DNA of 50,447 nucleotides from Oscillospiraceae bacterium (GCA_045112425.1 JBGUHV010000068.1:1-50447), one strand, 5' to 3'. Counted from the stretch's first letter, positions 13,011 through 49,534 are shown. Notes: generated from the sequence alone by a model not told the origin. Translations and numbers: made by a program.

Positions 13011-13370
13011 TTAGAACTTGAGGCCGCCCTCGCGGGCGCCGTCAGCCAGTGCCTTCACGCGGCCGTGATAGATGTTGCCGCCGCGGTCGAACACGACTTC
13101 TTCAATACCTTTGGCGAGAGCGCGCTCGGCAAGGACCTTGCCGACCTTCTCAGCGGCTTCCTTGTTGCCGCCGTTGCCCTCGAAGCCCTTCTCGACGGTA
13201 GAAGCGGAGCAGAGGGTGTTCTGCGCCACGTCGTCGATGATCTGGGCATAAATGTGATTCTCGCTGCGGAAGACGCTCAGACGGGGCCGCTCGGCCGTGC
13301 CGGAGATCTTGCCGCGGACACGCGCATGGCGCTTCGCGCGCTGCGCCTTCGTGTTGGGTCTCTTAATCAT
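13011..13370 (-). CDS. rplR: 50S ribosomal protein L18
   Basis: 119 aa, ...[20 protein letters not shown]...[27 protein letters not shown]. Confidence 0.97.
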
Positions 13371-13386
13371 TCAGGCACACCTCCAA

Positions 13387-13926
13387 TTACTTCGCGCCGG
13401 TCTTGCCTTCTTTGCGGCGGACAACTTCGTAGTCATACTTGATGCCCTTGCCCTTGTAAGGCTCGGGAGGACGCTTGCCACGAACTTCTGCTGCAAACTG
13501 GCCGACCTTCTGCTTGTCGATTCCCTTGATCACAACCTGGTTCGGGTTCGGAACGTCGATCTGGATATCGTCCGTCTCGGAAACCGTCACGGGGTGGGAG
13601 AAACCAAGGTTCATGACGAGGTTCTTGCCTTCCTTCTGCGCTCTGTAGCCGACGCCGTTGATCTCGAGGGTCTTCTGGAAGCCCTCGGTCACGCCCACGA
13701 CCATGTTGTGGAGCAGCGTGCGGGTCAGACCGTGCAGAGAGCGATAAGCCTTCTCATCGCTGGGACGGGTCACATGGACCACATTGCCCTCGACGGCCAC
13801 GTCGATCTCGGGAACGACGTCCATCTCGAGGGTGCCCTTGGGGCCCTTCACGGTGACGTGCTTGCCGTCAACCTTGAACTCAACGCCTGCGGGCAGCTCA
13901 ATGGGAGCTCTACCAATTCTAGACAT
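13387..13926 (-). CDS. rplF: 50S ribosomal protein L6
   Basis: 179 aa, MSRIGRAPIELPAGVEFKVDGKHVTVKGPKGTLE. Confidence 0.97.
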   Translation of the reverse strand: MSRIGRAPIELPAGVEFKVDGKHVTVKGPKGTLEMDVVPEIDVAVEGNVVHVTRPSDEKAYRSLHGLTRTLLHNMVVGVTEGFQKTLEINGVGYRAQKEGKNLVMNLGFSHPVTVSETDDIQIDVPNPNQVVIKGIDKQKVGQFAAEVRGKRPPEPYKGKGIKYDYEVVRRKEGKTGAK

Positions 13927-13941
13927 GTCTCGTTACCTCCC

Positions 13942-14340
13942 TTACCACACGAACGCGAGGACTTCGCCGCCGACGTGATTGGCGCGAGCCTTCTTGTCGG
14001 TCATGATGCCCTTGGAGGTGGAGATGATGGCAATGCCGAGGCCGCGGAGGACCTGGGGCAGCTCGTCCGCGCCGGCGTACACGCGCAGGCCGGGCTTGGA
14101 AACGCGCTTGAGGCCCTGGATGGCCTTCTCCTTGCCGGGGAGATACTTCAGGGTGATGCGGATGACGCCCTGCGTGCCGTCATCAATGAGCTGGAAGCTC
14201 TTGATGTAGCCTTCCTCGAGAAGAATTTCGGCGATGGCCTTCTTCATCTTGGAGTTGGGGACGTCCACGGTGGCATGTCTGGCGGATCCGGCGTTGCGGA
14301 TGCGGGTCAACATGTCTGCGATGGGATCAGTGATCTGCAT
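13942..14340 (-). CDS. rpsH: 30S ribosomal protein S8
   Basis: The ORF-track ORF runs up to 14649. The S8 sequence starts at [22 protein letters not shown] (ATG 14340-14338) with AAGGAGG 10 nt upstream. 132 aa. Confidence 0.95.
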
Positions 14341-14597
14341 TTGTGTGTTTCCTCCTTGTTCGAAGTTACCGGTGATTCCGGTTTGGGCGGCGAGGTTCCG
14401 CATGAATGCATGATTCCCTGCGGCCTTTCGCCATCCCTGTTCTTTCTTTGGAAAGAAAGAACCAAAGAAACTTGTTTCGTTGCCGGGATCGGCTGAAATG
14501 TCGTCTGCGCAGGCTCGACTGCTGCTGCGGTGGACACAGTGCAAACGCGCTTGGCAGCGGCATTTTTGCCTCGCTCGGCAGCGTATATTGAACGCGC

Positions 14598-15965: not shown

Positions 15966-15978
15966 AGATGTGTCCTCC

Positions 15979-16350: not shown

Positions 16351-16363
16351 TTAGGTTACCTCC

Positions 16364-16627: not shown

Positions 16628-16641
16628 TTCTTACTCCCTCC

Positions 16642-16836: not shown

Positions 16837-16838
16837 CT

Positions 16839-17267
16839 TTATTCACCACCATTCTCAGTCTCTTCCCGCTTGACGATCTTGGTCTTGCAGGGCAGCTTGT
16901 GGCTCGCCAGACGCAGGGCCTCGCGGGCAACTTCTTCGGAAACGCCGCCGATCTCGAACATGACGCGGCCGGGCTTCACAACGGCAACCCAGTACTCGGG
17001 AGAGCCCTTACCGGAACCCATGCGGGTCTCGGCAGGCTTCTGGGTAACGGGCTTGTCGGGGAAAATCTTGATCCAGACCTGACCGCCGCGCTTGGTGTAG
17101 CGGGTCATGGCGACACGAGCCGCCTCGATCTGGTTGGAGGTGATCCAGCTGGGCTCCTGAGCCTGCAGGCCGAACTCGCCGTAGGTCACCTTATTGCCGC
17201 GGGTGGCTTTGCCGGTCATACGACCGCGCTGCACTCTGCGGTACTTCACTCTTTTGGGCATCAGCAT
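16839..17267 (-). CDS. rplP: 50S ribosomal protein L16
   Basis: 142 aa, [27 protein letters not shown]. The ATG overlaps the rpsC stop (TAATG). Confidence 0.97.
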
Positions 17268-18163: not shown

Positions 18164-18180
18164 GTTCTGTGCCTCCTCCC

Positions 18181-18528
18181 TTAGTCTTTCTCAGCCACGA
18201 CGATGGTGATGTGGCTGGTGCGCTTGTTGATGCGGTACATACGTCCCTGAGCTCTCGGGCGGCCTCTCTTGAGGATGGGGCCGGCGCCGCAGTAGGCTTC
18301 CTTGACGTAGAGGTTGTCGGGATCCATCTCGAAGTTGGTCTCGGCATTGGCGCAAGCGCTCTTGAGGAGCTTCAGCATGAGCTCGCAGGCGGCCTTGGGG
18401 GTGTTCTCCATGTAGGCCTTGGCAAGCTTGGTATCCTTGCCGCGAATCATATCGCAGACGATCTGCACCTTGCGGGGAGCAATGCGGGCATACATCAGCT
18501 GAGCCCGAGCGGTTTTCTTTTCTTCCAT
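18181..18528 (-). CDS. rplV: 50S ribosomal protein L22
   Basis: 115 aa, ...[26 protein letters not shown]...[17 protein letters not shown]. Confidence 0.97.
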
Positions 18529-18540
18529 GTCTGCTCCTCC

Positions 18541-18816
18541 TTACTTACCGGCCGTCTTGCTGCCGGCGTGGCCGCGGAACGTGCGGGTGGGCGCGAACTC
18601 GCCCAGCTTGTGGCCGACCATATCCTCGGTGACATAGACCGGAACGTGACGGCGGCCGTCGTGCACGGCGATGGTGTGACCGACGAAAGACGGGAAAATC
18701 GTGCTGGCGCGGCTCCAGGTCTTGATGACCTTCTTCTCGCCGGCAGCGTTCATGGCGTCGACGCGCTTCAGGAGTTCCGGAGCGGCGAACGGGCCTTTTT
18801 TGACACTTCTGCTCAT
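18541..18816 (-). CDS. rpsS: 30S ribosomal protein S19
   Basis: 91 aa, [19 protein letters not shown]...[38 protein letters not shown]. Confidence 0.97.
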
Positions 18817-18830
18817 TGTTTAACTCCTCC

Positions 18831-19667
18831 TTACTTCGCGTTGCGGCGCTTGACAATATACTTGTCGCTGGCGTTCTTCTTCTTGCGGGTCTTGTAACCC
18901 ATGGCCGGCTTGCCCCAGGGGGTCACAGGGCCGGGACGTCCGACGGGGCTCTTGCCCTCGCCGCCGCCGTGGGGGTGGTCGTTCGGGTTCATGACGGAGC
19001 CGCGGACGGTCGGGCGGATGCCCATGTGACGCTTGCGGCCGGCCTTGCCGATGGAGATGTTGGCGTGGTCGATGTTGCCGACCTGGCCGATCGTGGCAAA
19101 GCAGTTCATGCGGACCTTGCGGAACTCACCGCTGGGCAGACGGACGGTCGCCATGCCGTTCTCCTTGGCCATCAGCTGCGCGGCGACGCCCGCGGAGCGG
19201 ACCAGCTGCGCACCCTTGCCGGGATAGAGCTCGATGTTGTGGATCACGGTGCCGACGGGGATGTTCGCGAGGGGCAGCGCGTTGCCGGGCTTGATGTCAG
19301 CCGCGGCGGAGGAGACGATGCTGTCGCCGACCTTCAGGCCCACGGGGGCGAGAATGTAGCGGTGCTCGCCGTCTTCATACTCCACGAGCGCGATGAAGGC
19401 GCTGCGGTTGGGGTCATACTCCAGACGCAGGACGCTGGCGTTCATGTCCAGCTTGTTGCGCTTGAAGTCGATGACGCGGTACTTTCTGCGGTTGCCGCCG
19501 CCCTGATGGCGGACGGTGATGCGGCCGTAGCTGTTGCGGCCGGAGTGCTTCTTGAGGACCTCCACCAGCTCCTTCTGGGGCTTGGCGTGCTTGTCAACGC
19601 CGTCGAAGCCGGAGACCGTCATACTGCGGCGGGCGGGTGTGGTCGGCTTATAAGTTTTAATAGACAT
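18831..19667 (-). CDS. rplB: 50S ribosomal protein L2
   Basis: 278 aa, [19 protein letters not shown]...[28 protein letters not shown]...[16 protein letters not shown]. Confidence 0.97.
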
Positions 19668-19682
19668 ACTTCGTTACCTCCC

Positions 19683-19979
19683 TTACACCATGCCCTCGAA
19701 GATCTCGATGTTCTTCGAATCCGCGGAGAGCTTGACAACGGCTTTCTTGCGCTTGGCGGTCATGCCGGAGGGCTGGGCGCCGACGCGCTTTTCCTTGCGG
19801 TGGATATAGGTCGTGGTCACCTTGATGACCTTCACGTCGAAGATCTCCTCGATGGCCTTCTTGATCTCGATCTTGCCGGCGTCGGGGGCGACTTCAAAGA
19901 CGTACTTCTTGATGTCGAGGTCCTCCATGGACTGCTCGGTGATGATCGGGCGAAGAATGATGTCGTAAGCGGTTTTCAT
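19683..19979 (-). CDS. rplW: 50S ribosomal protein L23
   Basis: 98 aa, MKTAYDIILRPIITEQSMEDLDIKKYVFEVAPDAGKIEIKKAIEEIFDVKV. Confidence 0.96.
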   Translation of the reverse strand: MKTAYDIILRPIITEQSMEDLDIKKYVFEVAPDAGKIEIKKAIEEIFDVKVIKVTTTYIHRKEKRVGAQPSGMTAKRKKAVVKLSADSKNIEIFEGMV

Positions 19980-20599
19980 GCGAACACCTCCTCGATTTTC
20001 TTCAGCGCGGCCTGATCCAGAACGAGCGCGCGGCTGTTGAGGATCGTGTAGGGGCTGATGATGGTGGCGGTGGTGCTGGTCACGCCGGGGATGTTGCGGG
20101 AGGACTTGACGACGTTCTCGTTGACATTCTCGGTGATGACGAGAGCCTTGCCCTCGACGCCCAGCTTCTGCAGGAACGCGGCGAACTTCGCGGTCTTGAT
20201 CTCGTCCATGTGCAGATCGTCGATCACGAAGATGGCGTTCTCGGCGGCCTTGGCGCTCAGCGCGCTCTTGAGGGCCAGACGCTTCACCTTCTTGTTGAGG
20301 GTGTAGCTGTAGTCACGCGGCTTCGGCGCAAAAGCGACGCCGCCGTGCGTCCACACGGGAGAGCCCTTGTAGCCGGCGCGGGCGCGGCCGGTGCCCTTCT
20401 GGCGCCAGGGCTTGGCGGTGGTGAAGCTCACTTCACCCTTGGTCAGAGCGCTCTGCGTGCCCTGACGGCAGTTGGCCAGATGATTCTTCACGGAATCATG
20501 CAGCACGGACTTGTTCGGTTCCACCCCGAAAATACCCTCGGAGAGCGTAACCTCGCCGATATTCTCGGCAGCCATGTTGAACAGTTTTGCGGTAGGCAT
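19976..20599 (-). CDS. rplD: 50S ribosomal protein L4
   Basis: 207 aa, ...HLANCRQGTQSALTKGEVSFTTAKPWRQKGTGRARAGYKGSPVWTHGGVAFAPKPRDY. Confidence 0.97.
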   Translation of the reverse strand: MPTAKLFNMAAENIGEVTLSEGIFGVEPNKSVLHDSVKNHLANCRQGTQSALTKGEVSFTTAKPWRQKGTGRARAGYKGSPVWTHGGVAFAPKPRDYSYTLNKKVKRLALKSALSAKAAENAIFVIDDLHMDEIKTAKFAAFLQKLGVEGKALVITENVNENVVKSSRNIPGVTSTTATIISPYTILNSRALVLDQAALKKIEEVFA

Positions 20600-20617
20600 T
20601 GATTCTCTCTCCTTTCC

Positions 20618-21337
20618 TTACTTTCTGGCGGAAGCCTTCTGCGGGTTGCGGCCCGAAGCCTTCTGCGGGTTGACGGAGACACCGGCGTCGCCCTTCTTGA
20701 CGATCTGCTTCTTGACGGTGCTCTTGACGTAGACGATGCCGCCCTTGGGGCCGGGGATGGCGCCGCGGATGACGATCATGTTGAGCTCGGGATCGACCTT
20801 CACGATGTCCAGATTCTGAACCGTGACCTGCTCGACGCCCATGTGGCCGGCCTGCTTCTTGCCCGGGAAAATGCGGGAGGGGTCGGTGCTGGAGCCCATG
20901 GAGCCCGCATGACGGTGCACAGGACCGCCGCCGTGGGTGGTGGGGGTACGACCCTGGCCGAAGCGCTTGACGACGCCGGCGTAGCCCTTGCCCTTGCTGA
21001 TGCCGGTGACATCAACCTTGTCGCCCTCTTTGAAGACGTCAGCCTTCAGAACGTCGCCGACGTTCAGAGCGCCGGTGTCCTCGAGGCGGAATTCCTTGAG
21101 GTGCTTCTTGTAGCTCACGCCGGCCTTGTCGAAGTGACCCTTCTCCGGCTTGGAGAGCTTCTTCTCGGCGACGTCCTCGTAGCCGAGCTGGACGGAAGTG
21201 TAGCCTTCCTTTTCCTCGGTCGCCTTGTAACCGACCGTGCAGGGTCCGGCCTCGATCACAGTGACGGGAACGACCTTGCCTGCTTCGTCGAAGATCTGCG
21301 TCATGCCGACCTTCTTGCCGATGATGGCAGTTTTCAT
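20618..21337 (-). CDS. rplC: 50S ribosomal protein L3 (with short repetitive C-terminal extension)
   Basis: 239 aa, [33 protein letters not shown]...[21 protein letters not shown]. The tail is ...[21 protein letters not shown]. Confidence 0.97.
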
Positions 21338-21577
21338 AGGTATCCTCCTTCAGGTTATTGGTCAGACCGCGTAACAGGAGCGTTCACTCTCTGACAGAGG
21401 CTTCTGACTTGACCCGCCCGCATACGCAAGCTGCGGGTATGGGTGAGATTGTGGGTTTCGTCCAAACGGGCGCGCTTCACTCCGTTTCCGCGGTTTCCGA
21501 AAGAGCCGCGAAAACTGCGCATCCGCTTCCCCGTTTGTCCTCCCCGATTTTGCACCCAGCGCAAAATCGGTTGTGGG
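21338..21577. repeat. 240-bp hairpin-rich spacer between rpsJ and rplC (element D)
   Basis: Unusually long for this junction. Contains CCGATTTTGC-ACCCAGC-GCAAAATCGG (21544-21570, the same TTTTGCRC..GCGCAAAA theme as 14776-14794), CGCGG..CCGCG and CCCGCA..TGCGGG stems. No credible ORF. Confidence 0.7.
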
Positions 21578-21889
21578 TTACAGCTTGATGTCGATCTCGA
21601 CGCCCGCAGGCAGCTCCAGAGTCGTCAGGGCCTCGACCGTCTTCTGGGTGGGGCTCATGATGTCGATCAGGCGCTTGTGGGTGCGGCGCTCAAACTGCTC
21701 GCGGCTGTCCTTGTACTTGTGAACAGCGCGCAGGATGGTGACGATCTCGGTCTTGGTCGGCAGCGGAATGGGGCCGGAGACCTTCGCCTCGGTGCGCTTG
21801 GCGGTCTCGACGATCTTCTCGGCCGCCTTGTCGATGAGCTGGTGATCGTACGCCTTGAGGCGAATGCGGATCATCTTTTTGTTTGCCAT
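21578..21889 (-). CDS. rpsJ: 30S ribosomal protein S10
   Basis: 103 aa, [46 protein letters not shown]. First gene of the supercluster. Confidence 0.97.
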
Positions 21890-22185
21890 GTTGTTTTTCC
21901 TCCGTTACGAATTTGATTGGCAGCATTGGCTCTGCCTTGGTTCGCACGGGTGAAGCTCTTATACACCCAACCGTGCGTATCAAACCCCGTCCGAAAAACG
22001 AACCGGCTTTCGCCGGATTCCCGTTCCCTTTCGGGTGATATACGCGGTGTCAGGAGCTTCAGCCGCCCGATTGCCTGCCGGAAAACGATCCGGCAGCGGA
22101 CATACTCCACGGAAGTTACCAGCGCGTCGCTGCAATCTCCCGCTTCATCGCATACTACGCCCTGCTCTCGCACAGGCGCTCTGAT

Positions 22186-22330: not shown

Positions 22331-24508
22331 TTACTTCACAGCCGACGCCCGAAACAGGAACGTCACGACGTGGGCGCGAGTGCAGGCGGCGTTGGGCGAG
22401 AAGGTGGTCTCGCTCGTGCCGGCTGTGATTCCCTGCCCGGCTGCCCAGCAGATCGCGTCATAGGCAAAATTTCGCTCCACGTCCGTGAAGGAACAGTCCG
22501 CCGACTGCGGCGCGGGATTGCCGAGGGCGCGGCGGAGGAACGTGACCACCTGCGCGCGGGTGCACACGGCGCCGGGCGAGAAGGTCGTCTCGCTCGTGCC
22601 GGTCGTGATGGCCTGCTCTGCCGCCCAGCAGATCGCGTCATAGGCAAAGTTTCGCTCCACGTCCGTGAAGGGGCAGTCCGCCGACTGCGGCGCGGGCGAG
22701 CCCGCCGCCCGCCAGAGGAACGTGACCACCTGCGCGCGGGTGCAGGGAGCGTCGGGCGAGAAGAGCGTCTCGCTCGTGCCGTTGGTAATCCCGCGCACAA
22801 GCGCCCAGTCGATGGCGTCGTGCGCCCAGTGATCCTTCGGGGGCATGTCTGCAAAGACTGTGCCCGGGCAGTCGCTGCCGCCGGCGCAGGGCAAGGTCGG
22901 TACGGTCGGCGCAGTCGGCGGGGCCGATTCGGTCGGCGTCGGATCTGGCGTCGGCTTCGGATCGGGCGTCGGCGTCGGCACGGCGGACGGATCGTAGATC
23001 TCGTACTCGATGCGGATGTGGCCGTAATAGTCGCCGCAGCCCTGGATCTCGACGGCGGCGATGCCCGGCGCATCATAGCTGTGCCAGCTGAGCAGGCCGT
23101 CGCGCGCGGCGGTGACGGAGTTGCTCAGCACGAGCTGGTATTCCCCGTCGGAGAGCTTCGGCTTCGGGCGGATCGCGCCGCCGGTGAAGCGATACCGCGC
23201 GGCGACGCCCGTGGGCTTGAGCAGGCTGACGTCCTTTCCCTGCGTGCCGCAGACGGTGCAGACGTGGTTTTCATCCCAGACGTGCCCCGCCGGCCACATG
23301 GCGCTGCCGGTGAATTTCTCGCCGCAGGCGCACCGGCCGGAGATGAAGTCATAGCGCTTCTTGCCGCTCTGGTCATAGAGCGTGCAGCGGTAGGTGTGCG
23401 TGGTTTTGACGCTGTGCAGCGCGCCGTCGGCTCCGGCGTGGAGCATCTCGTCGCCCCAGACGAGCCAGCCGGTCTGCTGCGCGCCGAGGATGGCGCAGCG
23501 GGAGGCCTCCCCGTCGCGGTAAATGCCGGTGAAGGAGGACAGCACGCGCGTTGTGCCGCAGAGGCCGCAGCGCACCGTGCCTCCGTCGCGCGCCCAGTCG
23601 TGCGCGCAGGTCTCCGGCTCCCGCACCGTCTGATACGGCGCGTCGGAGACGACCATAAGCGTCGCCGAGACACAGCGCTCCGCGCCGTCGGAGGAGCGGT
23701 TTTTCATCGTGAGCCCCTCGCCGGGGCGGCGGCTGAGGAAGGTGGAGGAGCCGCCGCCGTCGAGATTCACGGCGTCGGTGCAGCCGAGGGCGAGCAGGAT
23801 CTCGCCGAGCTTGTCGCAGGTCATGCCGCAGGACTCGGGGCGCTGCCGCCCGTCCACCTCCACGATGACGACCGTGCCGTCGGCGCAGGTGCCCACGGCG
23901 GTGCGGGGCTGCGGATCCGTGAGATAGCCGCCGGACTGCTCGAGGAGCCTGCCGTTTTCGATGAGGCGGTTCATGCCGCCGACGGCCTCGCGCACGGTGT
24001 TGTCGAGCCGCTGCTCGCCCGGCAGCACGGCGGCGGAGCCGTCGCGCCGGACGCAGAACCAGTGGTACCCGTCGATGGACTGATCGACGATTTTGCCGTT
24101 CATGGCGAAGGCGCCGGTCGGCTCGCCGGTATTCATATTATAAAAGTTCGCGTTGACGCAGCCGATGACCGTGGCAGCGGGGTCGGTCTGCCGCAGGGCG
24201 GCCTCCATGGCGGCGGACTGCTCGGTGCAGCGCTGCATGCCCCACTCGTCGGTGCTGTTGTTTCGATAGCCCGCGCGGAGCGAGACCGTCGGCTCCGAGG
24301 GATCGACAAGGAGCACGTGCAGCCGCTCCTGCCCGTCGCCGGACGGGAGATTCACCGTGAGCGCAAGCTCCGTCACGCCCGGGGCGAGGGCATGCTCCTC
24401 GGCCTCGACGACGCCGAAGCTGCCGAGCGTATCGCCCTGAGAGACCGCGAGCGCCGGCACGGCCAGCAGCAGCGCGAACGCCAGCGAGAGCAGGATGCGT
24501 TTGAACAT
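22331..24508 (-). CDS. Secreted phosphodiester glycosidase (NAGPA/DUF2233-like) with Cys-rich modules, Pro/Thr linker and three SLH domains
   Basis: The track ORF starts at a GTG (24517). The ATG at 24508 (MFKRILLSLAFALLLAVPALA) has GGAGG 8 nt upstream. Motifs VNANFYNMNTGEPTGAFAMNGKIV and AVNLDGGGSSTF fit the phosphodiester glycosidase family. Linker PTPTPDPKPTPDPTPTESAPP. Three SLH units at a 180-bp period (22381/22561/22741 are in register). Confidence 0.8.
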   Translation of the reverse strand: MFKRILLSLAFALLLAVPALAVSQGDTLGSFGVVEAEEHALAPGVTELALTVNLPSGDGQERLHVLLVDPSEPTVSLRAGYRNNSTDEWGMQRCTEQSAAMEAALRQTDPAATVIGCVNANFYNMNTGEPTGAFAMNGKIVDQSIDGYHWFCVRRDGSAAVLPGEQRLDNTVREAVGGMNRLIENGRLLEQSGGYLTDPQPRTAVGTCADGTVVIVEVDGRQRPESCGMTCDKLGEILLALGCTDAVNLDGGGSSTFLSRRPGEGLTMKNRSSDGAERCVSATLMVVSDAPYQTVREPETCAHDWARDGGTVRCGLCGTTRVLSSFTGIYRDGEASRCAILGAQQTGWLVWGDEMLHAGADGALHSVKTTHTYRCTLYDQSGKKRYDFISGRCACGEKFTGSAMWPAGHVWDENHVCTVCGTQGKDVSLLKPTGVAARYRFTGGAIRPKPKLSDGEYQLVLSNSVTAARDGLLSWHSYDAPGIAAVEIQGCGDYYGHIRIEYEIYDPSAVPTPTPDPKPTPDPTPTESAPPTAPTVPTLPCAGGSDCPGTVFADMPPKDHWAHDAIDWALVRGITNGTSETLFSPDAPCTRAQVVTFLWRAAGSPAPQSADCPFTDVERNFAYDAICWAAEQAITTGTSETTFSPGAVCTRAQVVTFLRRALGNPAPQSADCSFTDVERNFAYDAICWAAGQGITAGTSETTFSPNAACTRAHVVTFLFRASAVK

Positions 24509-24524
24509 GACGGTCACCTCCGTG

Positions 24525-36702: not shown

Positions 36703-36711
36703 CTGCGGACC

Positions 36712-36980
36712 CCCCTCAGTCTCGTTGCAGCAAGCTCCATATCCCTCACCGCTGAGCAAAGCTCACCGGATCGCTCATTTCGCTGCTGTTCCTCTCAAAA
36801 TCAAAGCAATTGCTTTGATTTTGTTCAGGAGGATTGACTTTCGCCGTCAGCCTTGTGAGGCCAAAGCCTCGCAAGGTGACTTGCGCAAGTCAATCGGACA
36901 CGGGGGCGCCGAGGGCTTCTCCGCACCACTCGCCTCCCCCTTTGGGGGAGGTGGACGAGCAAAGCGAGGCCGGTGGGGGT
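36712..36980. repeat. Second copy of the 270-bp mosaic core (element H)
   Basis: Collinear with 1711-1980 in the same orientation, including the 28-bp perfect palindrome CAAAATCAAAGCAATTGCTTTGATTTTG (36796-36823). It diverges only in a ~25-bp patch. This copy has no heptad arms. Confidence 0.85.
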
Positions 36981-36996
36981 CGTGTTTCTCCTATAC

Positions 36997-42290: not shown

Positions 42291-42304
42291 TTAGAGCACT
42301 GAAC

Positions 42305-42475
42305 AAAGTGATAGAGGCGCGGACGTCATCAGTACGCTCCATTTCCCGGCAGGAACCGGGGAGCGGAAAGGGGCTGCCGCCGAAGTGTTCGCTTCGATTC
42401 CTGTCGGGCGGATGCTGGGTCGCCGGAGAAGATCCGGCGGACTGTCGCGGATAACGCGGAGCGCTGTCATGGGCA
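42305..42475 (+). promoter_or_regulatory. Lysine riboswitch (L-box) aptamer
   Basis: Conserved L-box blocks appear in order: AGAGGCGCG, CAGTA, GGGGAGCGGAAAGGGG, GCCGCCGAAG, TGCTGGG, GCGCTGTCA. This matches the B. subtilis lysC and T. maritima L-box cores from memory. Confidence 0.85.
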
Positions 42476-42488
42476 ATTGCATTTTCAT

Positions 42489-42534
42489 TGTGTCATGAAC
42501 AGTTTCACCTCTGTTCAGGACACAATTTTTATTT
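42489..42534 (+). terminator. Riboswitch expression-platform terminator
   Basis: TGTGTCATGAACAG-TTTCACCT-CTGTTCAGGACACA followed by ATTTTTATTT. The TGTCATG segment repeats the 3' end of the aptamer, which allows alternative pairing. Confidence 0.8.
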
Positions 42535-42547
42535 GGAGGCATCCATC

Positions 42548-44194
42548 ATGAGAAACAGCCGCAAGCTCCTTGCCATCGTGCTGCTGGTGATCCTCGCCAT
42601 GTCGCTTCTGACCGTCACGGGTCTCGCCGTGGACGTGGACGACAACGGCGTCGCCACGGGCAGCCCCATGGCCTACTCGTTCTGGGCGCTCGTGCCGCCC
42701 ATCGTCGCCATCGTGCTGGCGCTGATTACGAAGGAGGTTTTCTCCTCCCTGTTCATCGGCGTGCTGCTCGGTGCGCTCTTTGCCAACAGCTTTGCCCCCG
42801 TCGGCACGCTTGACAGTGTGCTCGGCGAGGCAATCGTTCCCGCCATCACCGACCTCGCGGGCAACTTCATGTTCCTCGTCATCCTCGGCATCCTCGTCGT
42901 GCTCATCAACCGCTCCGGCGGCAGCGCGGCCTTCGGACGCTGGGCCGAGAAGAACATCAAGAGCCGCGTCGGCGCCATGATGGCCACGTTCATTCTGGGC
43001 GTGTTCATCTTCGTGGACGACTACTTCAACTGCCTGACCGTCGGCTCCGTCATGCTCCCGATCACCGACCGGCACAAGGTCTCCCGCGCCAAGCTCGCCT
43101 ACCTCATCGACGCGACTGCCGCCCCGATCTGCATGATCGCTCCGATCAGCTCCTGGGCCGCCGCCGTTTCGAGCTACGCCGAGGACGGGCAGGGTTTCGT
43201 CCTGTTCGTGAAGGCCATTCCCTATAACTTCTATTCCCTGCTGTCCATCGTGTTCGTCGTGGCGATCATCCTCATGAAGTTCGACTTCGGCCCGATGCGC
43301 CTGCACGAGATGAACGCTATGCTGAGCGGCGACCTCTACACCTCCGGCGACCACGTCGACAAGGCGCTGGAAAACAGCAAGTTCAACCCCAACGGCAAGG
43401 TCATCGACCTCCTGTTCCCCGTGATCGTGCTGATCATCGCCTGCTTCATCGGTCTGCTCTATGCCGGCGGCTACTACGACGCCTCCGGTGACTTCTACCA
43501 CCAGTTTCAGGGCGCCTTCTCCGAGACGGACGCGACCGTCGCCCTCCCGTGGGGCACGCTCATCGCCCTGCTCATCAGCCTCGTCTACTACTGGTGCCGC
43601 CGCCTGATCACCTTCAAGGAGTCCATGGAGGCGATCCCCACCGGCTTTATGAACATGGTGCCCGCCATCACGATCCTCACCCTCGCGACCGCTCTGAAGA
43701 ACGTGACGGGCCTCCTCGGCGCGAAGTACTTCGTCGCCGGCATCACCGAGAGCGCGGCGGCAGGTCTCTTCAACTTCCTGCCCGCGATCATCTTCGTCAT
43801 CGCCTGCGTCCTCAGTTTCTCCACCGGCACGAGCTGGGGCACCTTCGGCATCCTGATCCCGATTGTCGCCGCCGTGTTCGGCGATCCCAGCACGCAGCTT
43901 TACTACATCGGCATGTCCGCCTGCCTCGCCGGCGCGGTCTTCGGCGACCACTGCTCCCCGATCTCCGACACGACGATCATGGCCTCCGCGGGCGCGATGT
44001 GCAACCACGTCAACCACGTGGCGACACAGCTGCCGTACGCCGGGTGCGTGGGCATCATCTGCTTCGTGAACTACATCATCGCGGGCTTCATCCAGAACGC
44101 CTGGATCTGCCTCATCATCGGCGCCGCCATCACAGTCTGCACGCTGTTCGTGATCCGTTCCATCGTGAGCAAGAAGGAAGTCAAGGCAGCGTAA
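42548..44194 (+). CDS. NhaC-family Na+/H+ antiporter-like transporter (candidate lysine transporter, LysW-type)
   Basis: The true start is MRNSRKLLAIV with GGAGG 8 nt upstream. 548-aa polytopic NhaC-like sequence. It is directly controlled by the L-box. Confidence 0.85.
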   Translation: MRNSRKLLAIVLLVILAMSLLTVTGLAVDVDDNGVATGSPMAYSFWALVPPIVAIVLALITKEVFSSLFIGVLLGALFANSFAPVGTLDSVLGEAIVPAITDLAGNFMFLVILGILVVLINRSGGSAAFGRWAEKNIKSRVGAMMATFILGVFIFVDDYFNCLTVGSVMLPITDRHKVSRAKLAYLIDATAAPICMIAPISSWAAAVSSYAEDGQGFVLFVKAIPYNFYSLLSIVFVVAIILMKFDFGPMRLHEMNAMLSGDLYTSGDHVDKALENSKFNPNGKVIDLLFPVIVLIIACFIGLLYAGGYYDASGDFYHQFQGAFSETDATVALPWGTLIALLISLVYYWCRRLITFKESMEAIPTGFMNMVPAITILTLATALKNVTGLLGAKYFVAGITESAAAGLFNFLPAIIFVIACVLSFSTGTSWGTFGILIPIVAAVFGDPSTQLYYIGMSACLAGAVFGDHCSPISDTTIMASAGAMCNHVNHVATQLPYAGCVGIICFVNYIIAGFIQNAWICLIIGAAITVCTLFVIRSIVSKKEVKAA

Positions 44195-44210
44195 AGTCAC
44201 TGAACCATTT

Positions 44211-44247
44211 AAAACCGCCGCAGAGTTTTTCTGCGGCGGTTCTTTTG
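44211..44247 (+). terminator. Rho-independent terminator of the transporter gene
   Basis: AACCGCCGCAG-AGTTTTT-CTGCGGCGGTT followed by CTTTTG. Confidence 0.8.
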
Positions 44248-44260
44248 CTGTGCAGGCAAA

Positions 44261-44452
44261 GAGTGGAGCGTTGAGAGTGGAGAGTGGAGATGCGAGGTGT
44301 CGGCTGACGCCGACGGATTGGAATGCGGGTCATTCGTGAATGACCCCTACAAAAGGAGAACGCACTTCCCGTCTTTCGTAGGGGCGATTCACGAATCGCC
44401 CGCAAATTCAATTGCGCGAAGCGCTCCTTCAACTCCTAATTCCTAATTCCTT
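44261..44452. repeat. Mosaic element I (heptad arms + REPIN-like doublet)
   Basis: The left arm is built of AGTGGAG heptads and the right arm is AACTCCT AATTCCT AATTCCT. REP-like units at 44327-44350 (-) and 44378-44401 (+) lie head to head with a 27-nt spacer. The core is roughly 90 percent identical to the reverse complement of 48706-48848. Confidence 0.85.
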
Positions 44453-44454
44453 AT

Positions 44455-44484
44455 TTGCCTCATCTCCCACTTCTGTGGTATACT
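44455..44484 (+). promoter_or_regulatory. Putative promoter of the GTPase-NYN / ylmH / ttcA operon
   Basis: TTGCCT (44455-44460), 18-nt spacer ending TGG, TATACT (44479-44484). The -35 box abuts the right arm of element I. Confidence 0.4.
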
Positions 44485-44515
44485 TTGATTCGCAATCCAA
44501 CTCAGGAGTATTCTT

Positions 44516-47080
44516 ATGGACAACCTCGTTCCATCTTCATATCTCACGCTCGGCGTTTTGGCGCATGTGGACGCCGGGAAGACGACGCTCTCGGAGGCGA
44601 TGCTCTATCGCTGCGGGGCGAGGCGCGCGCTGGGGCGCGTGGATCACGGAGACGCGCTGCTCGACTATCACGCGCTCGAGCGCCGGCGCGGCATCACGAT
44701 CTTCTCCAAGCAGGCAAGATTCGACCTCGGGGAGGAGGTGCACGTCACGCTCCTCGACACGCCCGGCCACGTCGACTTCTCCGCCGAGATGGAGCGCGCG
44801 CTGCAGCCGCTCGATCTGGCCGTGCTCGTCATCAGCGCGGTGGACGGCGTGCAGGCGCACACCGAGACGCTCTGGCGCCTGCTGCAGCGCTATGAGATTC
44901 CGACCTTCCTGTTTGTGACGAAGATGGATCTCACAACGCGCTCCGAGACCGAGCTGATGCAGGAGCTGCGGCGGCTCGACCCCGGCTGCGTGGACTTCAC
45001 GGCCGCGCCGGACGAGATCTGGGAAAACGCCGCCATGACGGACGAGAATGCGCTCGAGACGCTGCTCGATTCCGGCTGCCTCGACGACGATCAGCTGCGC
45101 GGTCTCATCGCGCGGCGGCACGTGTTCCCCTGCGCCTTCGGCTCGGGGCTGAAGCTCACGGGCGTGGATGATTTTCTCACAATCCTGCGCCGATACGCCC
45201 CGCGCAACTCCTACGGCGCAGACTTCGGTGCGCAGGTTTTTCAGATTCTGCACGAGCCGCAGGCGGGGAGGCTCACCTGCCTCAAGGTCACGGGCGGCGC
45301 ACTCCGCGTGCGCGACACCATTACCTACTTAAACCGCCGCGGCGAGACCGTGACGGAGAAGGTCACCGCGCTGCGGCGCTACTCGGGCGAGAAGTTTGAG
45401 GCCGCGGACGTCATCCCGGCGGGCGACGTGGCGGCGGTGCAGGGGCTCTCCGAGACGTGGCCCGGGCAGGCGCTCGGCGAGGCGGAAACCGGCCTGCGCC
45501 CGGCGCTCGAGCCGGTGATGACCTACCGCGTGCTGCCGCCGGCGGAGCTGAGCGCGCGGGAGCTGCTGCCGCGGCTGCGCGAGCTCGAGGAGGAGGATCC
45601 GATGCTCCGCCTCGTCTGGGATGAGGAGCACCGCGAGATCCGCATGCAGCTGATGGGCGCGGTGCAGATCGAGGTGCTGCAGAGCCTGATCCGCGAGCGG
45701 TTCGACGCCGACGTGCGCCTCGACCAGCCGCGCATCCTCTATCAGGAGACGATCACCGCGCCCGTTGAGGGCGTGGGGCACTTTGAGCCCCTGCGGCACT
45801 ACGCCGAGGTGCATCTGCTGCTCGAGCCCGCAGCGCGCGGCGCGGGGATTCTGCTCGAGAGCCGCTGCCCCGAGGACGCGCTCGACCGCAACTGGCAGCG
45901 CCTCATTCTGACGCATCTGGCCGAAAAGACGCACCGCGGTGTCCTCACGGGCGCCCCGCTTACGGACGTGAAGATCACGCTCCTCGCCGGCCGCGCCCAC
46001 GCCAAGCACACCGAGGGCGGCGACTTCCGGCAGGCGACCTACCGCGCCGTGCGCCAGGGGCTCATGCAGGCAGAGAGTCTGCTCTTAGAGCCGCAGTACG
46101 CCTTTCGCCTCGCCGTGCCGACCGAGCAGATCGGCCGCGCCATCAGCGACATTCGCTTCAAACACGGCGTGTTTGAAGGGCCTGATACCGAGGGCGAGTT
46201 TTCCGTCCTCCGCGGCACGGCGCCGGTCTCCCTGATGGGCGATTACGCCGCCGAGGTCGCGGCCTACACGCGCGGACGCGGCAAGCTCTCGCTCGAGGCG
46301 GGCGGCTATGACGTCTGCCACAACGCCGACGCCGTGATCGACGCAATCGGCTACGACGCCGAGCGCGATACGAATAACCCCGCCGACAGCGTCTTCTGCG
46401 CGCACGGGGCGGGCACCGTGATCCCGTGGAATCAGGTACGGGAGTATATGCACATCGACACCGGCTTCGGCCGCGAGACCGAGCCCCCGCCCCCGGCGCC
46501 GCGCATCTTCCGGCGCAACCTCGATCTGGACGACAAGGCGCTCGAGGAAATTATGCTGCGCGAGTTCGGCCCGATCCGGCGGCGGGAATATAAAGCCCCC
46601 GTCGTGAACGCGGCGGATGACCCCGCCGATCTCTTCCACAGCCGCAAGCAGACGCTGATCGTCGACGGGTACAACGTGATCTTCGCGTGGGAGGAGCTCA
46701 AAACCCTCGCGCGGGATGATCTCGATCTCGCGCGGACGCGGCTGATGGACGTGCTGTCGAACTACGCGGGCTTTACGCAGCGGCGGCTGATTCTCGTCTT
46801 CGACGGCTACCGCGTGCGCGGAAACCCCGGCGAAAAGGGCGAATACAACAACATCCATGTGGTCTACACGAAGGAACACGAGACTGCCGACGCCTACATT
46901 GAGCGCATCGCAAACGACATCGGCAGAAACGAATCCGTCCGCGTCGTGACGTCGGACAGCCTCATCCGCATCTCCGCGCTCCGCTCAGGCGTGCTGCGCA
47001 CGTCGTCGACGGAGTTTCACGCCGAGGTGGCGCAGGTGGCCGAGCGGATCGAGCAGGCGATCAGGGATTTGAACCAATGA
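44516..47080 (+). CDS. EF-G/TetM-family translational GTPase fused to a C-terminal Rae1/YacP-type NYN ribonuclease domain
   Basis: Single 854-aa ORF with AGGAG upstream. G motifs AHVDAGKTT, RGITI, DTPGH, TKMD. TetM-like landmarks run through ~aa 640. Linker ETEPPPPAP. The last ~150 aa match B. subtilis YacP/Rae1 motifs (LIVDGYNVIFAW, LILVFDGY, YTKEHETADAYIERIA, VVTSD). Confidence 0.85.
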   Translation: MDNLVPSSYLTLGVLAHVDAGKTTLSEAMLYRCGARRALGRVDHGDALLDYHALERRRGITIFSKQARFDLGEEVHVTLLDTPGHVDFSAEMERALQPLDLAVLVISAVDGVQAHTETLWRLLQRYEIPTFLFVTKMDLTTRSETELMQELRRLDPGCVDFTAAPDEIWENAAMTDENALETLLDSGCLDDDQLRGLIARRHVFPCAFGSGLKLTGVDDFLTILRRYAPRNSYGADFGAQVFQILHEPQAGRLTCLKVTGGALRVRDTITYLNRRGETVTEKVTALRRYSGEKFEAADVIPAGDVAAVQGLSETWPGQALGEAETGLRPALEPVMTYRVLPPAELSARELLPRLRELEEEDPMLRLVWDEEHREIRMQLMGAVQIEVLQSLIRERFDADVRLDQPRILYQETITAPVEGVGHFEPLRHYAEVHLLLEPAARGAGILLESRCPEDALDRNWQRLILTHLAEKTHRGVLTGAPLTDVKITLLAGRAHAKHTEGGDFRQATYRAVRQGLMQAESLLLEPQYAFRLAVPTEQIGRAISDIRFKHGVFEGPDTEGEFSVLRGTAPVSLMGDYAAEVAAYTRGRGKLSLEAGGYDVCHNADAVIDAIGYDAERDTNNPADSVFCAHGAGTVIPWNQVREYMHIDTGFGRETEPPPPAPRIFRRNLDLDDKALEEIMLREFGPIRRREYKAPVVNAADDPADLFHSRKQTLIVDGYNVIFAWEELKTLARDDLDLARTRLMDVLSNYAGFTQRRLILVFDGYRVRGNPGEKGEYNNIHVVYTKEHETADAYIERIANDIGRNESVRVVTSDSLIRISALRSGVLRTSSTEFHAEVAQVAERIEQAIRDLNQ

Positions 47081-47820
47081 CGAACGAAGAACTCTTAAAG
47101 CGCGCGGACGATCTGGCCTCCCGCGCGGAAAGAACCGGCTCCGTGACGCACACGGCCTTTCTCACGCCGGCGGAGCAGTATCAGCTGCGCGCCTTTCGCC
47201 CGAGAGCCGACTGCCGCGTCGTGTTCTCCGGCGGCGTCGACGGCGCGGAGCGGCAGTGCGCCTTCTTCCTGCCGGACTGGATGGACGATGCGGACTTTGA
47301 CCCCGCCGAGACCATCCGCTGCATCCGCATCACGGCGCACTTCGGTGAGCCGGGGCACCGCGATTATCTCGGCGCGCTCCTGGGCATGGGCGTCGGGCGC
47401 GAGTGGATCGGGGATATCCTGATCGACGAGAGCGTCGCGCACGTTCTGTGCCTGCAGAGCGTGGAGGCGCATCTGCTCGGCATCGAGAAGGTGGGCCGCT
47501 GCGGCGTGAAGACCGCCGCCGTCGCCCTCCCGGACGTGCCCGTGCCGGAGCGGAAGGTGAAGAAAATTTCCTTCACGGTGCAGTCGCCCCGGCTCGACGC
47601 CGTGCTCTCCGGCCTCTTTCACCTCTCGCGCACGCAGGCCGCCGAGCGCATCCGCGCCGGCGACGCGAGCTTGAACTATGCCGAATGCCTCCGCCCCGAC
47701 GCAGATGTTCGCCCCGGCGACGTCGTGAGCCTGCGCGGATACGGCAAGGCCGCGGTGAAGGACCTCGGCGGTCAGTCCCGGAAGGGCAGAACGTATTTGA
47801 CCGGCGAGGTGTATCAATAA
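47077..47820 (+). CDS. ylmH: YlmH-like S4-domain RNA-binding protein
   Basis: 247 aa. FLTPAEQ, FSGGVDGAERQCAFFLPDW, HRDYLGALLGMGVGREWIGDI, PRLDAV and SLRGYGK parallel B. subtilis YlmH. The ATG overlaps the upstream stop (ATGA). Confidence 0.85.
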   Translation: MTNEELLKRADDLASRAERTGSVTHTAFLTPAEQYQLRAFRPRADCRVVFSGGVDGAERQCAFFLPDWMDDADFDPAETIRCIRITAHFGEPGHRDYLGALLGMGVGREWIGDILIDESVAHVLCLQSVEAHLLGIEKVGRCGVKTAAVALPDVPVPERKVKKISFTVQSPRLDAVLSGLFHLSRTQAAERIRAGDASLNYAECLRPDADVRPGDVVSLRGYGKAAVKDLGGQSRKGRTYLTGEVYQ

Positions 47821-47841
47821 CCCCGGAAAGGACTATTCTTT

Positions 47842-48675
47842 ATGCCCCGTGAACTCTCCCGCTCTGCGCTCATTGAGCGCAGCATCATCAAAACCTACCA
47901 CAAGCAGCTCTGGACGCCGTTTATCAATGCGCTCAAGCAGTATGAGCTCATCTCCCCCGGCGATAAGATCGCCGTTTGTATCTCGGGCGGCAAGGATTCG
48001 ATGCTGCTCGCGAAGCTCATGCAGCAGCTGCACCGCCACAGCGACGTGCCGTTCGAGCTTGAATACCTCGTGATGGATCCGGGCTACGCTCCGGCGAACC
48101 GCGCCAAAATCGAAGAGAACGCCGAGATTCTCGGCGTTCCGGTGACGATTTTTGAGTCCGACATTTTCGCCGTGGCGAACGGCGCGGAGAAAAACCCCTG
48201 CTATCTCTGCGCGCGCATGCGCCGCGGGGCGCTTTACGCCAAGGCGCAGGAACTGGGCTGCAATAAGATCGCCCTCGGCCACCACCGCGACGACGTGATC
48301 GAGACGACCGTGATGGCCATGTTCTACGGCGCGCAGCTGCAGGGCATGATGCCGAAGCTGCACAGCACGAATTTCCCCGGCATGGAGCTCATTCGCCCGC
48401 TCTACTGCGTGCGCGAGGAGGACGTCATCGCCTGGGCGAAGCACAACGAGCTCTCTTTTCTCCAGTGCGCCTGCCGCTTCACGGAGCGCACCGCCACCGC
48501 CGGGCACGAATCGGAGAGCAAGCGCAAGGAGGTCAAAAACCTCATCCGCACCCTCCGCGAGACGAACCCGGATCTGGAGAGCAATCTCTTCCACGCCATC
48601 CACGCCGTGAACTTGGATATGTTCCCGGGATATAAAACAAAAGGTGAAAAACATTCTTTCCTTGAGACATACTGA
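47842..48675 (+). CDS. ttcA: TtcA-family PP-loop ATPase (tRNA 2-thiocytidine synthase-like)
   Basis: 277 aa with PP-loop CISGGKDS. Cys motifs NPCYLCARMRRG and LQCACRF. 21 nt after ylmH. Confidence 0.8.
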   Translation: MPRELSRSALIERSIIKTYHKQLWTPFINALKQYELISPGDKIAVCISGGKDSMLLAKLMQQLHRHSDVPFELEYLVMDPGYAPANRAKIEENAEILGVPVTIFESDIFAVANGAEKNPCYLCARMRRGALYAKAQELGCNKIALGHHRDDVIETTVMAMFYGAQLQGMMPKLHSTNFPGMELIRPLYCVREEDVIAWAKHNELSFLQCACRFTERTATAGHESESKRKEVKNLIRTLRETNPDLESNLFHAIHAVNLDMFPGYKTKGEKHSFLETY

Positions 48676-48873
48676 GAGTGTGGAAGGTGGAGTGTGGAGT
48701 GTGGAGTTTAAAAGGGGAGCGCTTCGCGCGATAAAAAATTGCGGGCGATTCGTGAATCGCCCCTACGAAAGACCGGAAATGCGGTCTCCTCTTGTAGGGG
48801 TCATTCACGAATGACCCGCATTCAAATCCGTCGGCGCAAGCCGACACCATCACTCCACGCTCCTAACTCTACA
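48676..48873. repeat. Mosaic element J (inverted copy of element I)
   Basis: The GGAGTGT heptad arm starts at the ttcA stop codon. GCGCTTCGCGC hairpin. REP-like units at 48742-48765 (-) and 48793-48816 (+). GTCGGC-GCAA-GCCGAC hairpin. CTCC-type right arm. It lies between the ttcA stop and the terminator. Confidence 0.85.
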
Positions 48874-48876
48874 CTG

Positions 48877-48918
48877 AAACACACGCCGCAGATTTTGCTC
48901 TGCGGCGTGTTTCTTATT
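48877..48918 (+). terminator. Rho-independent terminator of the GTPase-NYN/ylmH/ttcA operon (overlaps 3' end of convergent gene)
   Basis: ACACGCCGCAG-ATTTTGCT-CTGCGGCGTGT followed by TTCTTATTT. Confidence 0.75.
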
Positions 48919-49534
48919 TGATTCGTTTCGCCCTTCCGGCTCTGACCTCAAACGCGCCTGCGCACCAGAGTCTGACTGCCTCGGGCAGGAGAATCCACTC
49001 CGCCTGGCGCAGAACGCGGCGCTGGAGCTTGACGGCGTCGTCATCGTCGCGCACCTCGACGGCCTTCTGCAGCAGCACGGCGCCGATGCCGCCCTGCTCG
49101 TCCACGAGATAGGCCGTGGCGCCGGTGAGCTTGAGCCCGCGGGCGAGCACCGCCTCGTGCACGGCGAGGCCGCGCAGGTCCTGAAACGCGGGCACCAGCG
49201 ACGGCTGCACCGCAATGATCTTGTTTCGGAAGGCCTTGGCCGTCTCGGGGCCGACGCCGGGATGGAACCCCGCGTCGATGACGAGATCGGCGTCGAGATC
49301 GCGGATCTTGTTGCGCACGGCGAGATCGAAGGTGCTCTCATTCGGGAAGACCTCGCGGTGGATGTCCACCGCCTCGATGCGCGCGTTGCGCGCGCGGGTC
49401 AGGGCGTTGGCCTCCGGGTCGGAGGAGATGACGGCGACGATCTCCAGCTCCGGAATTTCGCCGAAGAAGATGGAATCCAGCAGGCTCTGCAGCTTGGTGC
49501 CGCTGCCGGACGCGAGAACCACACAGCGAATCAT
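48914..49534 (-). CDS. PurN-like formyltransferase-fold protein with substituted catalytic residues
   Basis: 206 aa. VVLASGSGTKLQSLLDS and the overall layout align with E. coli PurN. However, the NIHPSLLP motif reads AVQPSLVP and DELDGGP reads DEQGGIG. The ATG overlaps the csaB stop (ATGA). Confidence 0.7.
   Translation of the reverse strand: MIRCVVLASGSGTKLQSLLDSIFFGEIPELEIVAVISSDPEANALTRARNARIEAVDIHREVFPNESTFDLAVRNKIRDLDADLVIDAGFHPGVGPETAKAFRNKIIAVQPSLVPAFQDLRGLAVHEAVLARGLKLTGATAYLVDEQGGIGAVLLQKAVEVRDDDDAVKLQRRVLRQAEWILLPEAVRLWCAGAFEVRAGRAKRIK

Follow-up and report, generated by a model that had tools for sequence, protein, structure and literature searches.

A 50,447 nucleotide stretch of DNA from an Oscillospiraceae bacterium (GCA_045112425.1, JBGUHV010000068.1:1-50447), called the window here, encodes a protein of 854 amino acids that is a motif-intact GTPase of the EF-G family covalently tethered to a motif-intact nuclease of the Rae1 type. 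We propose that this protein may act on ribosome-bound mRNA at stalled or collided ribosomes as a GTPase-tethered, Rae1-type nuclease, a reading to which we give a probability of roughly 45%.

Rae1 is a nuclease that associates with ribosomes and cuts mRNA where they have stalled or collided (PMC12407103, PMC13622287). The window protein adds another member to a family of TetM-like/NYN_YacP fusions, and its architecture is not new. Specifically, Atkinson (2015; BMC Genomics 16:78; PMC4342817) reported that Tet proteins of ten Clostridiales species had gained a YacP-like NYN RNase domain, and listed the RNase activity of the fusion as an experiment to do, while Matelska et al. (2017; NAR 45:6995; PMC5499597) also recorded this fusion and regarded what it does as unclear. 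An earlier note on this DNA, made from the sequence alone, knew of no functional description of the architecture; the fusion itself was already in both papers, albeit with no function attached. What is new here is the separation of the GTPase from the Tet proteins, the existence of family members that are not fused, the breadth of the family, and the limits of its linkage to genes for YlmH and TtcA.

Domain structure of the fusion protein

The reading frame runs uninterrupted from 44516 to 47080 on the plus strand, with a ribosome-binding site, AGGAG, 8 nucleotides (nt) 5' of its ATG. A Pfam scan gave the domain order, from the N- to the C-terminus, as GTPase domains I-V, an extension, a tether and a C-terminal NYN_YacP domain. 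The G domain (residues 9-229, 44540..45202; GTP_EFTU, E=8e-47) has a short, Tet-like G' region and is followed by domains II and III (residues 237-403, 45224..45724), matched by EF-G_D2 at residues 237-314 and by EFG_III at residues 332-403. Domain IV (residues 405-519, 45728..46072; EFG_IV, E=1.8e-18) holds a family-specific loop, R493-AHAKHTEGGDFRQATYRAVRQGL, at nt 45992-46060, and domain V (residues 523-603, 46082..46324; EFG_C, E=6.6e-15) runs into a C-terminal extension by which the family is distinguished (residues 597-646, 46304..46453) and which closes the GTPase part. A tether (residues 647-713, 46454..46654), consisting of a low-complexity segment rich in Pro, Glu and Arg and a conserved helix, then leads to the Rae1-type NYN_YacP nuclease domain (residues 714-851, 46655..47068; E=2.6e-44), all of these features being on the plus strand. 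The EFG_III, EFG_IV and EFG_C matches lie above their Pfam gathering scores, EF-G_D2 falls just short of its own (23.7 bits against 27), and NYN_YacP (PF05991) reaches 151.6 bits against 24.6. The earlier note had read a single 854-codon open reading frame (ORF) with translational GTPase motifs and a Rae1-like C-terminus; every motif it quoted is present, and the profile searches that it suggested returned GTP_EFTU, EFG_III/IV/C, PF05991 and, for the adjoining gene, YlmH_RBD.

The GTPase motifs G1 (AHVDAGKTT), G2 (RGITI), G3 (DTPGH, with the catalytic H85) and G4 (TKMD) are all found in the fusion protein, and they are invariant or nearly invariant among 53 homologues. On the nuclease side, residues 3-142 of Bacillus subtilis YacP/Rae1 (PDB 5MQ8) align to the NYN part with an E-value of 3e-22 and about 40% identity. 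In this alignment Rae1 D7, D53, D81 and D104 stand opposite D717, D763, D792 and D814 of the fusion, which bears out the claim of the earlier note that the catalytic acidic residues are kept, and all four aspartates are invariant in the 53 homologues. The two catalytic sets are also kept jointly in 280 long members of the family (DTPGH in 275, DGYN in 277 and TSD in 274 of the 280), and therefore both activities are under selection, jointly so in hundreds of species of Clostridia.

The tether varies in length across the family. Between the extension motif and DGYN there are 75-208 residues, with a median of 83 (n=223 members), and a helix of the pattern DxELxxIxxREFGP is conserved just N-terminal of the nuclease. 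A full-length AlphaFold2 model is confident for the NYN domain and, in the GTPase, for the G domain and domains II, III and V, with a predicted local distance difference test (pLDDT) mostly above 80 in domains II and III and of 80-93 in the NYN domain. The pLDDT is below 50 in the loops of domain IV and over residues 611-709, although the helix in the tether scores higher, and in a second model, of residues 585-854, the extension is modelled with modest scores (pLDDT of about 50-70). A tether that is variable, of low complexity and without a fixed position in AlphaFold2 is as expected for a leash. Comparison with the PDB by Foldseek gave EF-G on the ribosome, and nothing else, as the top matches.

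A GTPase subfamily separate from the Tet proteins

The best NCBIfam model for the fusion protein is tet_protect, but at 383 bits the match is far below the equivalog cut-off of 775, and the more specific models are missed by a wide margin, the M/W family model scoring 246 against 1100 and the Tet(M) model 213 against 1420. The canonical EF-G model, TIGR00484, is also missed (266.9 bits against 659.4). A single collinear alignment joins the protein to TetM, whereas its alignment to EF-G is split in two around the G' region, and it lacks the long G' insertion of canonical EF-G. The protein is only 28-31% identical to Tet(M)/(O)/(S)/B(P), while domains IV-V score 73 bits to EF-G as against 46-50 bits to TetM/TetO.

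A further difference from the Tet proteins is in domain IV. Direct alignment places RAHxKHTEGGDFRQATYRAVRQGL of the fusion family where Tet(M)/(O)/B(P) have the tetracycline-displacing loop YYSPVSTPADFR; HAKHTEGGDF is found in the window protein and the TetM loop III motif YSPVSTPADF is not. The family loop hardly varies, whether the member is fused or not, and HTxGGDFR is carried by 257 of the 280 long members. After domain V the family has an extension of its own, about 50 residues of the pattern GY.PCHN...SVFCAHGAG..W..V..YMH, that is shared with the unfused proteins of Lactobacillaceae and Subdoligranulum and is absent in Tet(M)/(O). C601, C628, H630 and H646 of this extension are invariant in the family and could form a metal site. 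By all criteria tested on its sequence, the GTPase part is not a true tetracycline protection protein, as the earlier note had expected from the replaced loop and as the tet_protect score also indicates. It is, from the same comparisons, a distinct and uncharacterised subfamily of EF-G/Tet-type factors.

In the databases, fused and unfused members (for example, L083 6001-8802 and L081 4980-6914) are often called TetM/TetW/TetO/TetS family tetracycline resistance ribosomal protection proteins, with 'elongation factor G' and 'Tet(M) from Tn916' among the other names in use. The fused protein of the window falls below the cut-offs of the Tet and EF-G models, and the Tet loop III motif is missing from members of both kinds. 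Such mis-named members are a likely source of false resistance calls and can inflate the counts of resistance genes in metagenomes.

Distribution and descent

A search of 5.8 billion proteins was made and the best 120 matches were examined; all of them are fusions of about 810-1100 amino acids, with the GTPase domains and PF05991 and an identity of 57-92%. Relatives are encoded in at least 598 stretches of species-representative genomes, and the best 80 of these stretches, to which the locus counts below refer, all encode full-length fusions that cover query residues from about 10 to 850. The 80 loci belong to the Oscillospiraceae, Ruminococcaceae, Acutalibacteraceae and Lachnospiraceae, and include the genera Faecalibacterium, Flavonifractor and Intestinimonas and, from the Lachnospiraceae, Dorea, Blautia, Mediterraneibacter, Anaerobutyricum and Herbinix. 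Further copies, from Monoglobus and Agathobacter, come from a plasmid collection. The full-length recurrence of the fusion in 120 proteins and 80 loci means that it is neither a chance ORF nor a join made in assembly, and it settles the concern of the earlier note that the frame could be an artefact or be confined to one genome.

When the tether and NYN domain alone were compared with 1.84 billion cluster representatives, 379 matches were obtained at E<=1e-30, the best 150 of which are fusion-type proteins or fragments of them. Short proteins with high-scoring NYN domains were considered as possible free paralogues and rejected, as all 13 that were read look like fragments of fusions; most start at a methionine inside the extension (MHLDSG..., MKWNRVREYMH...) and the rest inside the tether/NYN region.

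A neighbour-joining tree, in which Tet proteins alone served as outgroup and the root within the family is not fixed, unites the Lactobacillaceae proteins in a single clade (100 of 100 bootstrap replicates) and groups the fused proteins by taxonomy. The fusion gene is single-copy in hundreds of species and lies in housekeeping contexts. In the window its neighbours are likewise housekeeping genes, namely an nhaC-type transporter gene, a cytidylate-kinase-like gene, a glycosyltransferase gene and a formyltransferase gene, and none of them is a mobile or resistance gene. A tree that follows taxonomy, together with housekeeping neighbours and the lack of mobile or resistance genes, therefore argues for vertical inheritance and a housekeeping role.

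Family members without the nuclease

The subfamily also includes proteins of 640-660 amino acids that have the family loop and extension but no NYN domain. They are found on the chromosomes of many Lactobacillaceae, on the megaplasmid of L. salivarius and in Subdoligranulum variabile. Those annotated as 'translation factor GTPase family protein', such as LSL_RS10690 of L. salivarius pMP118, show 46-47% identity to the fusion over residues 9-648, and the Subdoligranulum variabile protein falls in the same range of identity, with its alignment covering residues 11-660. They resemble the fusion in the HTxGGDFRQA loop and the SVFCAHGAG...W...MH extension, but differ in that they end after the extension, without a tether and NYN domain; like the fusion, they are uncharacterised. 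The unfused GTPase occurs where Rae1 is a separate protein, and the presence of a fused form in some bacteria and of an unfused GTPase with a separate Rae1 in others is a Rosetta-stone hint that both act in one process.

A comparison of the neighbourhoods of unfused GTPase genes found no conserved neighbours. In L. salivarius UCC118 the pMP118 gene (L081 4396-6914) is divergent and adjoins a plasmid paralogue of rpsN (S14) and a gene for a 'putative metal homeostasis protein', and these neighbours, taken with the invariant C601, C628, H630 and H646, hint at a connection to a metal (zinc). The Subdoligranulum variabile gene (OY725836.1; L087 2992-4968) encodes an unfused member of 658 amino acids and is unannotated in its record. 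Its product sits on a long branch of the neighbour-joining tree beside the fused Faecalibacterium protein, a position that suggests a secondary loss of the nuclease domain within the Oscillospiraceae.

The ylmH and ttcA-like genes

The stop codon of the fusion gene overlaps, in an ATGA at 47077-47080, the start of a gene for a YlmH homologue of 247 amino acids (47077..47820, plus strand), and 21 nt after this gene a further one, for a TtcA-like PP-loop tRNA thiolase of 277 amino acids, begins (47842..48675, plus strand). Both junctions are as the earlier note had them. The first product matches YlmH_RBD (PF17774) at 37.6 bits against a cut-off of 23 (E=2.8e-9) and aligns with B. subtilis YlmH, as found in the 50S complex 8S1P (chain V), over residues 34-252, including the S4 part (E=2.6e-27), while the cyanobacterial equivalog TIGR03069 scores below its cut-off (99.9 against 201.6). 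No dcw/ylm genes were found near ylmH among the neighbours scanned in the window. The second product matches ATP_bind_3 (E=9e-19) but lies below the TtcA equivalog cut-off (NF007972; 198.1 bits against 272). From its sequence the product is best called TtcA-like.

A promoter-like site before the fusion gene (TTGCCT, an 18-nt spacer and TG-TATACT; 44455..44484, plus strand) is the sole sigma-70-like match in 44100-49000. It lies 3' of a terminator-like hairpin (44213-44241) at the end of the upstream nhaC-type gene, and a second terminator-like hairpin at 48881..48910 (plus strand) ends the putative three-gene unit. The fusion, ylmH and ttcA-like genes look like one transcription unit, because there is a single promoter-like site and a hairpin on either side.

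Directly 3' of the fusion gene, ylmH is found in 14 of the 80 loci and in one further, truncated case, all of them the closest relatives of the window. Four closer contexts, of metagenomic or genomic origin and with 64-82% identity, all have it too, either adjacent or within 3 kb, while the other flanks differ. Linkage to YlmH is thus limited to the subclade of the window, and there it is kept while other flanking genes change, which we count in favour of the proposed tethered nuclease. In contrast to ylmH, ttcA adjoins the fusion gene in none of the 80 loci, and the adjacency that the earlier note had offered for phylogenetic profiling is therefore incidental. Clustering of all ORFs of the 80 loci, together with a custom YlmH hidden Markov model (HMM), gave no other conserved neighbours of fused members; a MATE-like gene and a response-regulator gene, present in 8 loci each, were dismissed.

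On the ENA scaffold with P0018 there is a gene for an S4-domain protein of 81 amino acids (L095 3904-4149), located upstream of the pair of fusion gene and ylmH at a distance of two genes. Its size and its context, next to mazG and hbs, make it look RqcP/YabO-like, and it is probably in the usual yabN-yabO neighbourhood. If it is RqcP/YabO-like, two S4-type genes of ribosome-associated quality control families lie within 4 kb of the fusion gene.

Proposed function

EF-G and TetM dock at the GTPase-associated centre of the ribosome, with domain IV directed toward the decoding site. The N-terminal 646 residues of the fusion, GTPase-competent by their motifs, would dock at the same centre, which we infer because every characterised EF-G paralogue does so. 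GTP would then control the delivery of the nuclease to, or its retention on, a particular state of the ribosome, probably a stalled or collided one, and the tethered NYN domain would cleave mRNA on the ribosome to which the factor is bound, close to the side where the mRNA enters. We infer by analogy that the protein binds ribosomes, which RNA it cuts and that it is tied to stalling, and in the same sense the idea of a GTPase-delivered nuclease in the earlier note is plausible.

The position of the cut would be the inter-ribosome site at which free Rae1 cuts. Deves et al. (PMC12407103) place the cut by Rae1 at the tail of the stalled ribosome and not in the A site, and a September 2026 preprint (PMC13622287) links Rae1 to collided ribosomes and to tmRNA. 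The A-site cleavage on which the earlier note relied has thus been revised, in 2025-26, to cleavage upstream of stalled, probably collided, ribosomes. Since the exit side of the stalled ribosome is the entry side of the trailing one, a factor bound to the trailing ribosome fits best; a factor there with a leash of about 60-190 residues would be the best-fitting geometry, although this is speculation. The truncated mRNA would feed ribosome rescue, and co-transcription with ylmH, in the clade of the window, hints that the clearance of 50S-peptidyl-tRNA is connected to it.

Several observations weigh against this proposal. The unfused members imply that the GTPase has a job independent of the nuclease and is not a mere delivery vehicle, and B. 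subtilis Rae1, for its part, works without such a GTPase. As the Rae1 cut is at the mRNA-exit side and far from the factor site, the model needs a factor that either binds the trailing ribosome or reaches over a long distance. The AlphaFold2 arrangement of the domains (predicted template modelling score 0.51) is untrustworthy, domain IV and the tether being modelled too poorly for docking. With regard to YlmH, the custom HMM did not find ylmH at the other approximately 65 of the 80 loci, although 73 loci have at least 900 nt of sequence downstream. The linkage behind the module with YlmH put forward in the earlier note exists in the window subclade (14-15 of the 80 loci and four of four closer contexts) and not in the remainder. 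Moreover, Rae1/tmRNA and MutS2/RqcH/YlmH are independent pathways in B. subtilis (PMC13622287), and full-text searches of the literature gave no further paper on the fusion and no functional study of any member.

Of the other explanations, the one we take most seriously, while still holding it unlikely, is that the nuclease targets rRNA or tRNA and that the GTPase recognises vacant, immature or damaged ribosomes, with a role in maturation, turnover or shutdown. An RNase activity on rRNA was proposed for the fusion proteins by Atkinson (2015; PMC4342817), and the operon that it forms with mrnC and rlmB first tied NYN_YacP to the processing of rRNA/tRNA (PMC5499597); yet Rae1, the sole characterised NYN_YacP enzyme, cuts mRNA. 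A factor at the GTPase centre would put a tethered nuclease beside the sarcin-ricin loop, H69 and h44, and the EF-G-family paralogues BipA and LepA act in ribosome biogenesis. A tRNA-modification gene, the ttcA-like one, is co-transcribed in the window, but this linkage recurs in none of the 80 loci and no conserved rRNA-processing genes lie nearby.

Much less probable is a stress, toxin or anti-phage effector, in which infection, starvation or another trigger would cause a GTPase-gated nuclease to cut ribosome-bound RNA wholesale and thereby stop translation. The RelE-type ribosome-dependent mRNA nucleases act in this way, a BrnT/CopG toxin-antitoxin pair adjoins the Agathobacter copy and a YafQ/RelB pair the unfused Levilactobacillus copy, and the 2026 preprint speculates that Rae1 could defend against phage mRNA (PMC13622287). 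Against this, the PADLOC defence models gave no match and there is no conserved partner gene for immunity. Defence genes are typically patchy and island-borne, whereas the fusion gene is single-copy and vertically inherited in housekeeping contexts across hundreds of species. We rate lowest, as very improbable, a ribosomal protection protein against tetracycline or another A-site antibiotic with an RNase accessory domain, an idea raised by Atkinson (2015; PMC4342817). The tet_protect model as the best match (383 bits), the Tet-like length, the short G' region, the collinearity with TetM and the TetM/TetW/TetO/TetS names that NCBI gives to many members would favour it. The score is half of the equivalog cut-off of 775, however, with every Tet-specific model widely missed, identity is 28-31%, domains IV-V are nearer to EF-G, and YYSPVSTPADFR has given way to another, equally invariant loop; the gene is, in addition, chromosomal, without a mobile or resistance context and with a tree that follows taxonomy.

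The reading of a GTPase-tethered nuclease at stalled or collided ribosomes may be extended to a bolder one, which we consider doubtful. On this view the hitherto unrecognised GTPase subfamily of the Firmicutes, with its HTEGGDFRQA loop and an extension bearing Cys and His, would be dedicated to sensing ribosomes that have stalled or collided and would work together with Rae1, as a free protein in the Lactobacillaceae and fused in the Clostridia. The fused form would then be a bacterial no-go-decay enzyme in which GTP hydrolysis licenses the cleavage of mRNA, wired in the window clade to the clearance of 50S-peptidyl-tRNA by YlmH. A structure of ribosome-bound Rae1 is lacking since its binding is transient (PMC13622287), and if the sensor reading is true, the fused protein would offer a natural covalent trap with which to solve the position of Rae1 on the ribosome. 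With the leashed Rae1 domain locked on the ribosome, by guanylyl imidodiphosphate (GDPNP) or an H85 mutant, it could be tested which of the collided ribosomes nucleases of the Rae1 type bind, and the side from which they do so. Major genera of the human gut, such as Faecalibacterium, Agathobacter, Blautia, Dorea and Flavonifractor, have members of the family, and the function of the family thus matters for how the gut microbiota controls the quality of translation.

Other features of the window

Upstream of the fusion gene, a lysine riboswitch (RF00168, 91 bits; 42304-42474, plus strand) lies directly 5' of the gene for the NhaC-type antiporter (42488..44194). The block of fusion, ylmH and ttcA-like genes is flanked by a 113-nt element at 44296-44408 and its inverted copy at 48736-48848 (93% complementary), which hold internal hairpins (GGGTCATTCGTGAATGACCC) and short repeats of the GAGTGTGGAGT type. 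These were considered as the ends of a cassette and rejected, as related pieces occur at four other intergenic sites of the window; the repeat family is represented at 1644-2037, 5356-5377, 36711-36981 and 48674-48875. The dispersed intergenic repeat looks like a genome-wide element of the repetitive extragenic palindrome (REP) or miniature inverted-repeat transposable element (MITE) kind.

Small minus-strand ORFs reaching down to about 5.7 kb (window approximately 5700-22156) would, by ORF sizes alone, be the main ribosomal-protein cluster, presumed on the same grounds to comprise the S10, spc and alpha operons with secY, adk, map and rpoA, and an S10-Clostridia leader (RF03136) is located at 22071-22156. 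A plus-strand ORF of 399 amino acids with a low GC content at third codon positions (13297..14496) takes up the place in which one would expect rpsH, rplF and rplR, and is probably spurious. A surface protein with SLH domains and a phosphodiester-glycosidase domain is encoded at 22331-24517 (minus strand), where three tandem 180-nt repeats (22356-22895) encode the SLH copies; related inverted repeats are found at 4898-5009.

Comparison with known systems

The nearest known proteins are the fusions of Atkinson and Matelska et al., which have the same domain architecture and come from the same taxon, the Clostridia. They do not differ in kind from the window protein; those papers list about ten species, and here at least 598 stretches are concerned. 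With Tet(M)/Tet(O) the fusion family shares a five-domain, EF-G-like build, the short G' region, a similar length of the GTPase and the same G motifs. It differs from them in having VGHFEPLRHY and HTEGGDF where the Tet proteins have TIHIEVPPNPFW and YSPVSTPADF, in an extension that is longer and of another sequence, and in the lack of a mobile or resistance context.

With B. subtilis Rae1/YacP the nuclease shares the NYN_YacP fold family and the four active-site aspartates. Rae1 is, however, a free protein of about 170 amino acids encoded in a cysS-mrnC-rlmB-yacP(-sigH) neighbourhood, an operon, whereas the NYN domain of the fusion lacks the last 28 or so residues of Rae1, is preceded by a conserved helix and is tethered to a translational GTPase, and the context of its gene, with nhaC-type, ylmH and ttcA-like neighbours, is a different one.

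Among systems that deal with stalled ribosomes, we know of none in bacteria that fuses a nuclease to an EF-G-family GTPase. SmrB of Escherichia coli, Cue2 of yeast and Dom34-Hbs1 resemble the proposed mechanism in that a nuclease or a probe is brought to a stalled ribosome, a likeness that would be one of functional analogy alone; SmrB and Cue2 have an SMR nuclease fold that is unrelated to NYN. In the case of Hbs1 a translational GTPase controls the delivery, with Dom34-Hbs1 acting as a GTPase-delivered probe of the A site.

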